From: Chthonomonadales bacterium
Lineage (GTDB): Bacteria; Armatimonadota; Chthonomonadetes; Chthonomonadales; CAJBBX01
Assembly: GCA_013360745.1 (NCBI GenBank)
Contig: JABWBA010000010.1
Location: forward strand, 646-64,645
Length of the DNA: 64,000 bases
Direction of reading: 5' to 3'
Shown here: positions 15,447 to 29,020 of the stretch, one piece after another
How the letters are laid out: every line of letters begins with the position of its first letter
How positions within the stretch are numbered: position 1 is the stretch's first letter
Program-made: the position numbers and the translations under genes
The notes under the pieces: model-generated
The model's input: the letters and a program-made list of their open reading frames with translations, nothing else
What the model was told of the DNA's origin: nothing
Databases searched by the model: none

Positions 15447-18400
15447 ATGGGAGCCAGAACGATCTACATCCTCGGGGCGCTCCTCGTCCTGGTATCGCTT
15501 GCGACGACATCGGCCATGGCGGCTGAGCTCGTCCCCATCGCCGACCCAACCTCGGGCCGCTGGACCGGGTTGAAGTACGGCAGCGTTGAGCTGTCCGCGG
15601 GGCCGAGCGAGGATCTCTCAATCGAAGGTGAGCAGGCCGGGCAGCGCACAACCGCCGCCCGTACGGAGGTGCGCGTCGTCAGGCAGGGCGCCCGCACGGT
15701 TCTTTCCTATCGGTCCGGCGACTGGATGATCGACGACGTCATGACCCGCAACGGAGCTGCCGTCCGCCGCCGGATCCATGCGCAATGGGAGGGCGCCGCG
15801 ACGGCGGTCGTTACCGGTGTGACCCTCCGAACTCCGATTCTGCGTCTCTCGCCATCGACGAACGACTGGGCGCTGCTCCCGGGCAACTTCCCGATTCGCA
15901 AGATCCGCCTCGCCGCCATGACCGACGGCGAGCGCGCCACGGAGTCCGGCTGGACCCGGGGCGACTACGCCCTCGCGATGCTCCATTCACCCACGGCCCG
16001 GATCTCCGTCGTAGCAGGCTATGCGTTTCGAGGCGACGAAGCGCGGGTCTCCGTCGAACGCCTCGGGAATGGCCTCGTGCTGGAACATCGCTTCCACGCC
16101 CTCGCCCGCCTCGAACCGGGCGACAGCATGGAGATCGGTGAGCAGGTTCTGCGCGCGATTCCAGGGCCGGAAAGCGCACTCCGGCGCGGCGTGGCGAACC
16201 TGTCGGACCATCTGGACAATGGCCCGCCCGGAGATACGCCGACCGACATCGGCCGAACCGTTCTGTATGAGGTGCACCCCTGGGGGCGTTTGGAGATCTG
16301 GGGCGTCGGCGATCGGGGCTACCGGTACGACCGACTGACCAGACTCCTCCTGTACTACAAGCGGCTCGGGATCAACGCCTTCTGGCTGCTGCCCGTAAGC
16401 TGGCCCCCGCCATGGGTCTATACCCTGCCGGCGTTCGACAGGATCGCGCCCGAGAACGGCACGCCCGAGCAGCTCAAAGGCTTCGTGGACGGCGCCCACG
16501 CGCTGGGGATGCGCGTTCTCATGGACCTTGTCGTCTACGGCATCCACCCGGACTCCGAGGAGGCGGCGAAACTGCCGCCGGATGTCTGGGCCAGGGATCG
16601 TAACGGCCAACCGACCCGGGTATGGGGCGGCGCCGTCCTAGCCGCCGACACGAGCGCGCCCGCATGGCAGGCTCGGATCCGTCAGGTGTGCGACGCGTGG
16701 GTCCGGCAGTTCGGCTTCGACGGGGCGCGACTGGATTGCATCGGGTGGGGGCAGACTCCGAACTGGGCGGCGGCCCGACCCAACCGCGCTATGGCAGAGG
16801 GCGGACTGCAGCTCAATAAAGTGGTTCGGGAGGCGTTCCGCGCCGTCAACCCCCGCTCCCTCCTCCTGCCCGAAGGGGGCAAGCCGCTCGTCTTCCGTAA
16901 CGCCGACATGATCTTCGACTACCCGCTCTACCTCGCCATGCGGGACATGACCCTGCGGCCGGACCTCTCCGGCTGGATCGCCGATCTGCAAGCCTGGCTT
17001 GAATGGGAGCGCCTCTGCTATCCCCGGCGCGCCCAGGGCATCGTACGGTTTCTCGAACTGCACGATACCGTTGCCTCCACCGAATACTTCGGCGCAGGCC
17101 CAGCCCAGGCGCTGACAGCGATCTGCGTGTTCCTCCACGGCGTTCCCCTGCTGCAGCAGGATCAGGAGATCGGCTTCAGCGCCGACCTGGCCGCCTGGCT
17201 CCATCTCCGCGACCGCGAACCGCGATTCTGGAAGGGCGGGGCGCGGTACGACGCCGTTCGCAGTTCGGACGCTCGGATATGGACCTGCCTGCGGGAAGGG
17301 GCGGAAGGAGCCGCGGTCATCGGGGTGAATCTCACGGGCGCCGATATCAAAACCCGACTCCGATGGCCTGCCGACATCGCCAGAGCGTACCCTTCGGGCT
17401 TCAACGGCCTGTCGGGCCAGGCAGTGGCCCTCCGGGATGGCGCCGTCGACGTCGTCGTGCCCGCCTATCGGCCGTTCGTTCTGCTGCTCAATCCCCGCGG
17501 TGTCCGCCCGAAGCCGATTCGGCCGGTTCGGGCGACGGGCCAACGGTGGACTGTCCGGACCAGCGAAGGCGTTCTCAGCGACATCGTACAGGATTATGCG
17601 ACCGGATCGGCCGATCGGAGCATCCCCCTGAGCTCGCCGAAGGGCGATGCCGAGGAGGTCCTGCCGACGCTCCGACGGGCCCGCAATGCCCGTGAGCTCG
17701 GCCTTATGGACGGCGTTATCCCCCGATCCATTGCCGGCGGGCCGGTTCGGGTTGCCGTCGATCCGTGGTTCGTGCGGCTAACCAACGATCGCTTGCGCCT
17801 CACGCTCGCTCGGAGACACGGAGGGATCATCGCGGAGCTCGCCCGCATCGACGGGAAGGCCGCCGTGCCGTTGATCCGCACGGGCGGGGATGCCTACGCG
17901 GACCAGGGATTCTTCCCCGACAACCAGTTCGGCTCGGTGGACGGGGAGACCAACCCCCGGCTCTCGTTCATTCGATCACGAGACCGGGTGACGGTACGGT
18001 TTGCGGGCGTCCTTCGGAGTCGGTCGTGGAACGGGGTGCAGACCTGCGCGATCGCCGGCCCCCTCCTCCGATACGAGCTCGCGTACAGCATGGACACCTC
18101 GAACTCGATCCTGATCACGATGACGCTGACCTCGCCGACCGATCGGACGCCGGGGCAATCCTTCTTCGCCCTCCGCCTGCCGATCGGCAGGCTCACCGGC
18201 TGGAGCAGGGGCGCGAATAACGGCGCGGTGGATGAGGCGTCTCAGGGGCGGCTCGGCCAGGGCGCCCTATCGGAGCCGCTCGAGCTCCAGACCCGCAACG
18301 GTCGGCTAACCGCCACTCCGGGGCCGGGCATGCGCAACCTCTTCGCAATCGGCGGCGCAACAACGGACGCCCATCTGTTCCTCGCGCTCGCGGACGGGCC

Positions 18401-18482
18401 CCTTGCGGCCATGGACGCAAACCAGCCGCTCAGGGCCGAGTGTGCGCTCACCGTCGGCGCTGAGGAACCGTCCGATCCATGA
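15447..18482 (+). CDS. Secreted multidomain GH13 (alpha-amylase-like) protein
   Basis: Signal peptide. Conserved regions VLMDLV, FDGARLD, LPEG and ELHDT, flanked by long N- and C-terminal beta domains. Confidence 0.75.
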   Translation: MGARTIYILGALLVLVSLATTSAMAAELVPIADPTSGRWTGLKYGSVELSAGPSEDLSIEGEQAGQRTTAARTEVRVVRQGARTVLSYRSGDWMIDDVMTRNGAAVRRRIHAQWEGAATAVVTGVTLRTPILRLSPSTNDWALLPGNFPIRKIRLAAMTDGERATESGWTRGDYALAMLHSPTARISVVAGYAFRGDEARVSVERLGNGLVLEHRFHALARLEPGDSMEIGEQVLRAIPGPESALRRGVANLSDHLDNGPPGDTPTDIGRTVLYEVHPWGRLEIWGVGDRGYRYDRLTRLLLYYKRLGINAFWLLPVSWPPPWVYTLPAFDRIAPENGTPEQLKGFVDGAHALGMRVLMDLVVYGIHPDSEEAAKLPPDVWARDRNGQPTRVWGGAVLAADTSAPAWQARIRQVCDAWVRQFGFDGARLDCIGWGQTPNWAAARPNRAMAEGGLQLNKVVREAFRAVNPRSLLLPEGGKPLVFRNADMIFDYPLYLAMRDMTLRPDLSGWIADLQAWLEWERLCYPRRAQGIVRFLELHDTVASTEYFGAGPAQALTAICVFLHGVPLLQQDQEIGFSADLAAWLHLRDREPRFWKGGARYDAVRSSDARIWTCLREGAEGAAVIGVNLTGADIKTRLRWPADIARAYPSGFNGLSGQAVALRDGAVDVVVPAYRPFVLLLNPRGVRPKPIRPVRATGQRWTVRTSEGVLSDIVQDYATGSADRSIPLSSPKGDAEEVLPTLRRARNARELGLMDGVIPRSIAGGPVRVAVDPWFVRLTNDRLRLTLARRHGGIIAELARIDGKAAVPLIRTGGDAYADQGFFPDNQFGSVDGETNPRLSFIRSRDRVTVRFAGVLRSRSWNGVQTCAIAGPLLRYELAYSMDTSNSILITMTLTSPTDRTPGQSFFALRLPIGRLTGWSRGANNGAVDEASQGRLGQGALSEPLELQTRNGRLTATPGPGMRNLFAIGGATTDAHLFLALADGPLAAMDANQPLRAECALTVGAEEPSDP

Positions 18483-26450: not shown

Positions 26451-26526
26451 TGGCTAACCATAAGGTGGATCGAACGGGCGCCTGCCCGCAAGGCACGGTG
26501 AGCGACGATGGCGTGGAGGTGACGGG

Positions 26527-28191
26527 ATGCGTCGGATAATCGGAGGTGCGGGGATGGTCGCGGCGCTGCTCTGGGCGTCGCTCGGGATCAGCCGCTCGGA
26601 TTCCGGGGCGAGTCGGCTGAAGAAGCTGCCGGTGCAGCATCGGGTCGATGGAAGGCCGCTGCTCGGTTCGTACAACGTCGACGACGTCAACGGCATCGCC
26701 CGGATGGCCGCCATGGGCATGAACCTCGTCCTCGGCGGCGAGGAGCATCTCGACCCGGCCAAACCGCTCGGGAGTGCCTGCGCGGAGCACAACGTTCGCG
26801 TGCTGTACCATCTGACCCAGCACATCTACGGCAAGCCCCGGCTGGCGGCGCGCGTGACCCCGAGTCAGACCACCATCCCCCTCTACACCGAGGGCGCCGG
26901 CGCATTCCCCAAGCAGGGCACGATCCAGCTCGATGACGAGGTCATCGTCTACGAGGATTCCACCGAAAACACGCTGCTTCGGTGCCATCGAGGGTCAGCC
27001 GGAACCAAACCCGCCGCGCACCGGGTCGGCACGATTCTCTTCTGGCCTGATCAGGCGGCGGCCGAGATCGGGCGCGTTCGCAGTTCGCCGAATCTCTGGG
27101 GCTATTACGTGCTGGACGATAGCCCGGGCGACGCTCTCTCCGCGCTGACGGCGCTCTATCGGATCGCGAAACGACTCGATCCGGGGCGGGTCGTCGCGGC
27201 CGGATACGGGAGCGCCGGTTCGTTGTGCAACTTCGGCCCCGGCGTCTGCGACCTGATGCTTGTCTACTGGTACCCGGTCTTCGCCAGCGGCAACTACGAT
27301 CCGCTGCTCACCAGTCATCAGGTCCAGTGGATGATGGCAGAGGCCCGACGCATCGTGCCAGGGATCCCGTTCGCGGGAGTCTATCAGACCTTCGATGCGG
27401 CGTTTGAACGCCCGGAGAACCTGGGCAAGGGGCTGCCCACCCCCGAGCAGCTGCGCAAACAGATGGAGGACTTCGTCCGTGAGGGGGCGTGCGGGCTCAT
27501 CGCCTATCTCGGAGGCGTGCCGATCCTCCCCGGCTGGGAGACGCGGCCGGCGCTCCAGCGGGTGATTCAGGAGACGAACGCGGAGATCCGCGCGAAAGGC
27601 GGGCTGCTGCTGCCGCCCGAGCCGCCGGATATGGCTGCGGCTCGAACGTTCCCGATGGGATTCTGGAGCCGGGCCTCGAGCATCCCGGGCATTCCGCCGG
27701 CGTGGCACGTGATCCTGCCCTTTGGCCCCACGGGCGCGGCAGGCCTCGACGCGCAGTATCCGCCGGATCGGGAGATCCGCCTGGACGCCGAATACCCGTC
27801 CGACCAGCTGTCGATCGGCTGGATCGTGCGGCGGACGATCGGCGGCGTCATCGGCCTCGGCGAGATCGCGGCGATGGCCTCCGCGACACGGGAGGCGATG
27901 GCCTACGCCACCTGCGAGGTCATCAGCCCCGCCGAGCAAAAGGCGCTGCTGGCCTGCGGGAGCGACGACGACATGATCGTTCGCCTCAACGGCGAGGAGA
28001 TCGTACGGCGCGTGTACGCCGGAGGTCTCAAGAGAGACGCGGAACGATGGGAAATCACGCTGCGGCAAGGGGTGAACCGCCTCTTCGTCAAGGTGCATAA
28101 CAGAGCCGGCATGTGGGGCTTCCAGGTCCGCCTTCTGAGCAAGGACGGGCAACCGCTCCGCGGATTACGATTCAGCCCTGCCGCTCCATAA
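26527..28191 (+). CDS. Secreted glycosidase-like barrel protein with an inserted module and a C-terminal beta-sandwich
   Basis: Signal peptide, PNLWGYYVLDDSP, C-terminal GSDD..VRLNG...LRQGVNRLFVKV, RBS GGAGGTG. Confidence 0.7.
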   Translation: MRRIIGGAGMVAALLWASLGISRSDSGASRLKKLPVQHRVDGRPLLGSYNVDDVNGIARMAAMGMNLVLGGEEHLDPAKPLGSACAEHNVRVLYHLTQHIYGKPRLAARVTPSQTTIPLYTEGAGAFPKQGTIQLDDEVIVYEDSTENTLLRCHRGSAGTKPAAHRVGTILFWPDQAAAEIGRVRSSPNLWGYYVLDDSPGDALSALTALYRIAKRLDPGRVVAAGYGSAGSLCNFGPGVCDLMLVYWYPVFASGNYDPLLTSHQVQWMMAEARRIVPGIPFAGVYQTFDAAFERPENLGKGLPTPEQLRKQMEDFVREGACGLIAYLGGVPILPGWETRPALQRVIQETNAEIRAKGGLLLPPEPPDMAAARTFPMGFWSRASSIPGIPPAWHVILPFGPTGAAGLDAQYPPDREIRLDAEYPSDQLSIGWIVRRTIGGVIGLGEIAAMASATREAMAYATCEVISPAEQKALLACGSDDDMIVRLNGEEIVRRVYAGGLKRDAERWEITLRQGVNRLFVKVHNRAGMWGFQVRLLSKDGQPLRGLRFSPAAP

Positions 28192-28243: not shown

Positions 28244-29020
28244 ATGAGACCGATCGTCCCACTGGCCGGCGCAATCCTGCTGGCGATAGGGATCGCCGCC
28301 CAACCCGTGCAACGCCGAACGACGTGGACCCCGCTGTTCAACGGCAAGGACCTGACCGGCTGGACGCCCAAGATCAAAGGGCTACCGCTCGGCCAGGACC
28401 CGAAGAGGACGTTCCGGGTGGAGAACGGGGTCCTGAAGGTGTCGTACAGCGCGTACGATCAGTTCGACGGCGCGTTCGGCCACTTGTATTACAGGCGAAA
28501 GCTCTCCCGGTACGCCATTCGCACGGTCTACCGGTTCGTCGGCGAGCAATGCCCAGGAGGGCCGGGCTGGGCGTTCCGGAACAGCGGCATCATGCTGCAT
28601 TGCCAGCCGCCCGCCACCATGCGGGTGGATCAGGACTTCCCCGTTTCGATTGAGGCCCAACTGCTCGGTGGTGACGGGCGGGGCGAACGGCCGACGGCGA
28701 ACGTCTGCACGCCCGGCACGAACATCGTCATGGACGGCAAGCTGATCACCCAGCACTGCAGCAACTCCCGATCGAAGACCTACCACGGGGACCAGTGGGT
28801 GACCGCCGAAATCGAGGTCCATGGCGGGGGCAGGATCGTGCATCGGATCAACGGCGAGGACGTGCTCGAATACGAACAGCCGCAGCTGGACCCGACCGAC
28901 GCCGACGCCGCGCGATTGGTCCGTGCGAACAAGCTCCTCCTTGAGGAAGGCTACATCGCGCTGCAGGCGGAGAGCCACCCGGTCGAGTTCAAGAGCGTGG
29001 AGCTTAGAATGCTCCGATAG
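28244..29020 (+). CDS. DUF1080 (3-keto-disaccharide hydrolase-like) protein
   Basis: LFNGKDLTGW, NSGIM, SIEAQLLG, GYIALQAESHP. Confidence 0.92.
   Translation: MRPIVPLAGAILLAIGIAAQPVQRRTTWTPLFNGKDLTGWTPKIKGLPLGQDPKRTFRVENGVLKVSYSAYDQFDGAFGHLYYRRKLSRYAIRTVYRFVGEQCPGGPGWAFRNSGIMLHCQPPATMRVDQDFPVSIEAQLLGGDGRGERPTANVCTPGTNIVMDGKLITQHCSNSRSKTYHGDQWVTAEIEVHGGGRIVHRINGEDVLEYEQPQLDPTDADAARLVRANKLLLEEGYIALQAESHPVEFKSVELRMLR

Follow-up and report, generated by a model that had tools for sequence, protein, structure and literature searches.

The window analysed here, a stretch of 64,000 nucleotides (nt) from a Chthonomonadales bacterium of the phylum Armatimonadota (contig JABWBA010000010.1), contains a gene for an unannotated protein, P0001, flanked by a gene of the GH172 family and one for a 3-keto-disaccharide hydrolase-like protein. 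P0001 is predicted to consist of a triosephosphate isomerase (TIM) barrel and a C-terminal β-sandwich. Its barrel is interrupted by a small β-barrel module that belongs to a family of repeats otherwise known from phage virion proteins. To our knowledge, the presence of this repeat at such a barrel site, apparently in two large unannotated families of which P0001 represents one, has not been described to date.

The barrel and the position of the insert

The AlphaFold2 (AF2) model of P0001, built on a 39-sequence alignment, has a predicted local distance difference test (pLDDT) score of 91 and a predicted template modelling (pTM) score of 0.88. It shows a (β/α)8 barrel followed by a β-sandwich. 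Nucleotides 26839-27042, which the first-pass annotation of this DNA had read as separating two halves of a barrel, correspond exactly to residues 105-172, and in the model this segment does lie between two parts of one barrel. Strands β1 (residues 43-49), β2 (67-70) and β3 (91-95) precede it, and α3 (174-184), β4 (190-196), β5 (222-227), β6 (243-247), β7 (282-287) and β8 (323-327) follow. The insert, with strands at 117-120, 131-135, 138-145 and 149-157, is thus placed between β3 and α3, in a β-to-α loop. The active sites of TIM barrels are located at the C-terminal ends of the strands, on the face formed by the β-to-α loops.

Searches of Pfam, NCBIfam and PDB sequences gave no match for the whole protein and nothing informative for the excised insert. 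Two profiles of the P0001 family, A1 (full length) and A3 (insert deleted), matched no PDB or Pfam entry. In a Foldseek comparison of the whole model with the PDB, the matches listed were all glycoside hydrolases (GH) with TIM barrels and sandwich domains (expectation values, E, of 3e-8 to 1e-5), drawn from families GH5, GH35, GH2, GH66, GH13, GH27 and GH158. The template modelling (TM) scores to these glycosidases are low (0.2-0.34); the matches are mixed, no TM score exceeds 0.34, and no GH clan is favoured. The C-terminal sandwich, for which some family members show weak Pfam matches to Glyco_hydro_2_N and to a rhamnosidase-like N domain, is probably a sugar-binding jelly roll.

The insert is a phage virion repeat

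When compared with PHROGs, the excised 68 residues matched phrog_4406 (virion structural protein, E 3.6e-7), phrog_11439 (tail fibre, E 2.7e-6), phrog_2885 (baseplate wedge, E 7.7e-5) and phrog_1101 (tail protein, E 9e-4). The module was also modelled in isolation (residues 103-176, with a 33-sequence alignment) and gave a small β-barrel with a pLDDT of 96.5; because it folds alone at this score, the module is, as modelled, an autonomous domain. The three best matches of this model in the PDB are all phage virion proteins (TM 0.72-0.77): a capsid chain of Vibrio phage VP1 (9in6_M, TM 0.77), a 116-residue chain of the portal-tail complex of phage GP4 (8jov_1, TM 0.73) and the baseplate hub of phage JBD30 (8rk3_b, TM 0.72, 24% identity). 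The GP4 chain is not the subject of the GP4 capsid paper, which treats a different, 157-residue cement protein. The next matches, crown barrels of F1-ATPase, are generic (TM ~0.5). Among the predicted viral structures of BFVD, 24 matched at E<=1e-3. The best ten (TM 0.78-0.86, 22-35% identity, root-mean-square deviation mostly 1.1-2.1 Å, with one at 5.2 Å) comprise proteins of uncultured Caudovirales, cyanophage structural, baseplate-wedge and fibre proteins, tail fibres and a Bodo saltans virus protein.

A profile of the module matched 5042 proteins at E<=1e-3 among 1.84 billion representatives, each match standing for a cluster at 50% identity. The best of them are giant proteins of 4000-8000 residues with up to 25 copies each. 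Eleven such proteins (P0113-P0120, P0122, P0131 and P0166; 3800-8000 residues) carry 8-25 copies; one giant protein comes from a Firestonebacteria metagenome-assembled genome (MAG) and one is labelled 'microcystin-dependent protein'. In 20 module proteins of this kind, no Pfam model matched the repeat itself; what Pfam did recognise were occasional phage marks elsewhere (Prophage_tail, Baseplate_J) and weak matches to PF23666 (Rcc01698_C). Against P0001 and the excised segment, PF23666 gave no match at E<=1 (its gathering threshold is 27 bits). The PHROGs matches of the module's relatives cover profile positions identical to those matched by P0001.

The consensus of 190 copies in other proteins reads tL...I.a..TtI.V......P..G.I.Id.E.I.Yt...g..LtgC.RG..GTtAa.H..G..Vy, which is essentially the pattern FP..G.I.ID.E.I.Y...TL..C.RG..GT.A..H..G that the first-pass annotation had associated with phage tail and baseplate proteins. 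The positions of E138, R155, G156, T160 and H165 are conserved in 99, 99, 90, 81 and 97% of these copies, respectively. The module is a discrete member of the phage virion-repeat family, and the resemblance goes well beyond chance. The reading of the segment as a module therefore stands; an ordinary part of a catalytic domain, lacking phage relatives, is not what the searches returned.

Age and distribution of the insert

The module is present in each of the 39 homologues that were aligned (37-66% identity), and E138, R155, G156, T160 and H165 are invariant in them. The search with the insert-deleted profile A3 brought in 23 further proteins. Every one of these that is complete in the insert region retains both the module and the Asp197-Asp198 pair described below, and there was no insert-less relative among the 23. 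Among them, a subfamily of about 400 residues (P0274-P0276, ~29% identity) still has the barrel with its module and the Asp-Asp pair, with VDDN or VDDA where the P0001 family has LDDSPGD, and is devoid of the C-terminal sandwich. The P0001-family modules make up one clade (support 0.88). Their identity to phage-type copies is 30% on average and 51% at most, and the phage-type copies are 33% identical to each other. Named sources of P0001 homologues are Chthonomonadales (Armatimonadota), Hydrogenedentota and Latescibacterota MAGs. Because the module occurs in all homologues, including the subfamily at 29% identity, and forms a single clade, and because the A3 search found no insert-less counterpart, it is an ancient, fixed part of the P0001 family and not a recent capture.

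We considered whether E138, R155 and H165 might be the insert's contribution to catalysis, and rejected this idea: the invariant residues of the module are the repeat's own signature (81-99% conserved in phage copies) and hence do not indicate catalytic recruitment.

A second module-bearing family in the same genome

One further copy in this genome was detected with the profile of the module (G000:C106:41098-41319, E 8e-6). It lies outside the window, within a 996-residue protein, P0281 (G000:C106:40018-43008; L012:4019-7009). P0281 is encoded between an upstream gene for a GHL10-domain protein and a downstream gene for an RCC1-repeat protein with Ig domains. Its family comprises at least 1500 members of ~940 residues, all without Pfam domains, from Armatimonadota, Latescibacterota and Planctomycetota MAGs. 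The E, C, RG, GT and H positions of the module are invariant in this family, too.

Ahead of the module, the P0281 profile shows a weak match to GH36 α-galactosidase/galactosaminidase structures (E 0.027), in a region that reads ..iDdGW..GDW..n...FP.G.....d.iH..G.. in the family. Directly after the module, P0281 has the sequence GFDMIYLDALDG, which to our eye resembles the nucleophile strand of GH27 and GH36. If GFDMIYLDALDG is indeed that strand, the module of P0281 would also lie between β3 and α3, apparently at the same site as in P0001.

The modules of the two families align with each other convincingly (hhalign probability 98.7%, E 2e-16). The barrels, compared without it, show no similarity (hhalign probability <2%), and for this reason we do not propose that the two families descend from one ancestor that already had both barrel and module. 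Nor are the two families' modules each other's closest relatives: their mutual identity is 31%, compared with 30% between the P0001 family and phage-type copies, and they fall into separate clades. Either one module was placed twice at a like site, or a common ancestor has diverged past detection. The presence of the module in a second, TIM-barrel-like family, after a weak GH36-like motif, suggests that glycosidase barrels with such an insert are favoured by selection.

Candidate active-site residues

The motif DDSPGD follows directly on β4. D197, D198, P200 and G201 are invariant in the 39 sequences and S199 and D202 nearly so; with the 29%-identity subfamily included, D197 and D198 are still almost without exception. 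Several aromatic or polar residues at strand ends (Y49, H95, Y247, Y249, Y286 and Q287) are conserved down to 37% identity. Position 287, at the end of β7, is Gln, or His in two members, and never Glu. The end of β5 reads G-Y-G and that of β6 Y-W-Y-P, neither with a conserved acid. Judging from the alignment, D197 and D198 are the best candidates for catalytic residues. The first-pass annotation had taken DDSP for a variant acid/base motif in place of DEP. The motif is invariant and lies at the C-terminal end of β4, where a catalytic carboxylate would be expected; the implied clan GH-A variant fails on Gln287.

Gene start and genomic neighbourhood

The features of the locus are collected in Table 1. 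Opposite-strand open reading frames (ORFs) over the P0001 region can be put down to the usual artefacts of high-GC DNA, because 111 database homologues (E down to 0) match the forward frame. The start codon is ambiguous. A second in-frame ATG lies at 26554 (Met10), and both ATGs have GGAGGTG upstream at an equal spacing of 7 nt; the database protein P0002 (545 residues), identical to P0001, begins at the second. A conserved Met stands directly ahead of the barrel in most homologues, in the alignment column of K32/K33, from which we conclude that annotated starts are inconsistent across the family. Read by eye, the N-terminus MRRIIGGAGMVAALLWASLGISRSDSG has a basic n-region and then a hydrophobic stretch, and many aligned homologues have signal- or lipobox-like N-termini; P0001 is probably secreted.

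Table 1. Features of the P0001 locus, in window coordinates.
Feature	Position	Strand	Evidence
Divergent neighbour, DUF2961/GH172-family protein, 673 aa	24234..26255	-	PF11175, E 4.6e-71
Shine-Dalgarno GGAGG, 7 nt 5' of the ATG at 26527	26515..26519	+	Read from sequence
Gene for unannotated TIM-barrel and β-sandwich protein P0001, 554 aa	26527..28191	+	ORF, homologues, AF2 model
Probable signal peptide MRRIIGGAGMVAALLWASLGISRSDSG	26527..26607	+	Sequence reading
Barrel, N-terminal part, β1-β3, aa 36-104	26632..26838	+	AF2 secondary-structure order
Inserted small β-barrel module of the phage virion-repeat family, aa 105-172, β3-α3 loop	26839..27042	+	PHROGs, AF2, Foldseek, profile search
Remainder of barrel, α3 to α8, aa 173-385	27043..27681	+	AF2; whole-model Foldseek
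DDSPGD motif, aa 197-202, C-terminal end of β4; candidate catalytic D197 and D198	27115..27132	+	Alignment, AF2
C-terminal β-sandwich, aa 386-554 (begins at ~390 in the model)	27682..28188	+	AF2, all-β
Downstream neighbour, 3-keto-disaccharide hydrolase-like, 52-nt gap	28244..29020	+	PF06439, E 1.4e-34

In the GH172/DUF2961 neighbour, the Pfam domain spans residues 271-500, leaving ~270 N-terminal and ~170 C-terminal residues without assignment. Further out in the window are genes for an amylase-like protein, a GH2-like fragment and an S9 peptidase. A 1011-residue protein encoded at 15447-18482 (+), the sole match of which is a short α-amylase/GH66-like one at residues 300-435, may be another divergent glycosidase.

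We also inspected seven homologue loci. The homologue P0004 has a GH172 gene immediately downstream. At a second locus, a heparinase II/III-like gene lies 15 nt upstream and GH95 is present as well; a third has a sulfatase, a fourth two GH29 fucosidases and a heparinase-like gene, a fifth has the family gene between two GH2 genes, and a sixth has a β-helix protein. One of the seven has no telling neighbours. The homologue P0060 (910 residues) carries a WbsX-like domain (PF14307, residues 147-352) as an N-terminal fusion. No phage genes were found near P0001 in the window or at the seven homologue loci. A glycan-degrading role in general terms is therefore well supported, by the glycan-degradation genes nearby and the lack of phage genes among them.

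Discussion

On balance, we think that P0001 is a secreted enzyme of an undescribed family acting on glycans, in which the module helps to build the substrate cleft. The module is predicted to sit on the barrel face that carries TIM-barrel active sites, where it would adjoin the two invariant aspartates, Asp197 and Asp198, at the end of β4. It could form one wall or a lid of the cleft and help to hold the polysaccharide, doing the job of domain B in GH13 or of insert 1 in GH31 at the same topological site. The enzymatic activity, the catalytic function of Asp197/Asp198 and the binding of substrate by the module are the parts of this proposal that we infer.

Several observations weigh against this proposal. 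The module residues that are invariant in the family are those conserved in phage copies, so they tell of no enzyme-specific role. The alignment contains no second conserved carboxylate at the end of β5, β6 or β7, and CAZy-type family models matched neither P0001 nor the family profiles. Moreover, the structurally matching domain VI of the JBD30 hub is described as an architectural contact that touches domain VII and lends stability to the baseplate (PMC11445458), and the C-terminal domain of the RcGTA megatron protein, after which the weakly matching PF23666 is named, is described as fibre-binding (PMC7296036). Neither domain is described as a sugar binder.

Both precedents speak for a module that serves as a protein-protein contact or oligomerisation element and leaves the substrate untouched, whether by stabilising the barrel, by mediating multimers or by engaging a surface partner; the N-terminal crown barrels of F1-ATPase, next in the list of structural matches, are likewise assembly domains. 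We regard such a role as the main alternative, though a less likely one, as the β3-α3 loop on the catalytic face is an odd site for an element that serves assembly only, the module is kept, seemingly at the same site, in two barrel families without detectable kinship, and no partner gene is conserved beside the family at the seven homologue loci. The missing acids at β5, β6 and β7, the lack of a CAZy-type match and the low TM scores to real glycosidases would also suit a glycan-binding or glycan-sensing protein whose TIM barrel is catalytically dead and which binds through the module and the sandwich. This we consider improbable: invariant D197, D198, P200 and G201 at the end of β4, together with conserved strand-end residues, are typical of a working active site, and family genes are grouped with GH2, GH172 and heparinase-like genes in the manner of operons. 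The first-pass annotation had spoken of a domesticated phage module in a glycosidase. The module does reside in a glycosidase-like barrel of a probably secreted protein, but the recent capture that the term implies does not hold. The module is much commoner and more diverse among phage-type proteins, as would be expected had a glycosidase of this lineage lately acquired it from a prophage; yet all family members have it, whether from Armatimonadota, Hydrogenedentota or Latescibacterota MAGs, as does the distant subfamily, the family modules form their own clade, phage genes are missing from all the loci inspected, and the one other copy in this genome belongs to another cellular protein. We give a recent capture hardly any credence.

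Returning to the proposal of a cleft-building module in a glycan-active enzyme, a wider version of it is possible, if doubtful: the module may be a new glycan-binding domain, akin to a carbohydrate-binding module, that is common to the receptor-recognition machinery of phages (fibres, baseplates and capsid decorations) and to bacterial glycosidases, with the P0001 and P0281 families being new glycoside-hydrolase families in which it builds the cleft. If this is true, the enzymes offer a first route to identifying the ligand that the repeat, present in >5000 protein clusters, binds. A soluble enzyme with a single copy offers a tractable system for studying the function of this very abundant phage repeat. 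The two families are also candidate new carbohydrate-active families, common in Armatimonadota, Latescibacterota, Hydrogenedentota and Planctomycetota MAGs and located in polysaccharide-utilisation neighbourhoods.

Comparison with known systems

Clan GH-A, which includes GH5, GH35, GH2 and GH158 among the top Foldseek matches, shares with P0001 the TIM barrel, a β-sandwich and, where β4 ends, an acidic motif that continues with Pro. A GH-A mechanism was nevertheless rejected. The motif is Asn-Glu(-Pro) in GH-A and DDSP in P0001, the nucleophile Glu of β7 is replaced by Gln287 (or His), and no family model matches. In GH13 and clan GH-D barrels, the nucleophile position is an Asp at the end of β4. 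P0001 has a conserved Asp there (D197, kept in the subfamily at 29% identity), but the second carboxylate, on β5 in GH13 and on β6 in GH-D, is missing, and profiles A1 and A3 gave no sequence or profile match to these enzymes. The adjacent Asp197-Asp198 pair recalls the substrate-assisted hexosaminidases of GH84, which have a tandem Asp-Asp on the β4 loop and no enzyme nucleophile. P0001 has such a pair and lacks a β7 nucleophile; GH84 is not among the 50 Foldseek matches listed.

As for the module, a close counterpart is domain VI of the baseplate hub gp53 of the Pseudomonas phage JBD30, a six-stranded β-barrel that is an excursion from another domain (PMC11445458; PDB 8rk3). The likeness is that of a small β-barrel embedded in another domain (TM 0.72), the setting being a virion baseplate in one case and a cellular TIM barrel in the other. 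The module profile aligns to the hub over ..vvDDEivrv....tvtlaRGcadTvPakHlaG.., although the sequence match is weak (E 0.57). The repeat of PHROGs 4406, 2885, 708, 11439 and 1101, many of them cyanophage, has the same fold and shares with P0001 the signature L..I....T.I.....P..G.I.ID.E.I.Y....L..C.RG..GT.A..H..G. It often occurs in multiple copies, in tandem or interspersed, in fibres and giant proteins, whereas P0001 has a single copy in an enzyme loop; and where the repeat belongs to virion proteins or a phage genomic context, P0001 has cellular enzymes for neighbours. The distantly related PF23666 (Rcc01698-like C-terminal domain, from the RcGTA megatron protein) is matched weakly by P0142, P0173 and P0281 over the RG..GT..H part; with 98 positions the model exceeds the module in length, and its match to the module's relatives is confined to the second half.

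Glycosidase barrels with inserted domains are already well known. In GH13 α-amylases and GH31 α-glucosidases, domain B and insert 1, respectively, are inserted after β3, next to a catalytic Asp on β4, and help to form the substrate cleft. The whole-model Foldseek matches of P0001 include structures of GH13 and GH66. The inserted fold is a different one in these enzymes, there is no sequence kinship, and no GH13 or GH31 catalytic triad can be identified in P0001. The likeness is one of position: the P0001 module, too, comes after β3 and would lie beside the Asp of β4.

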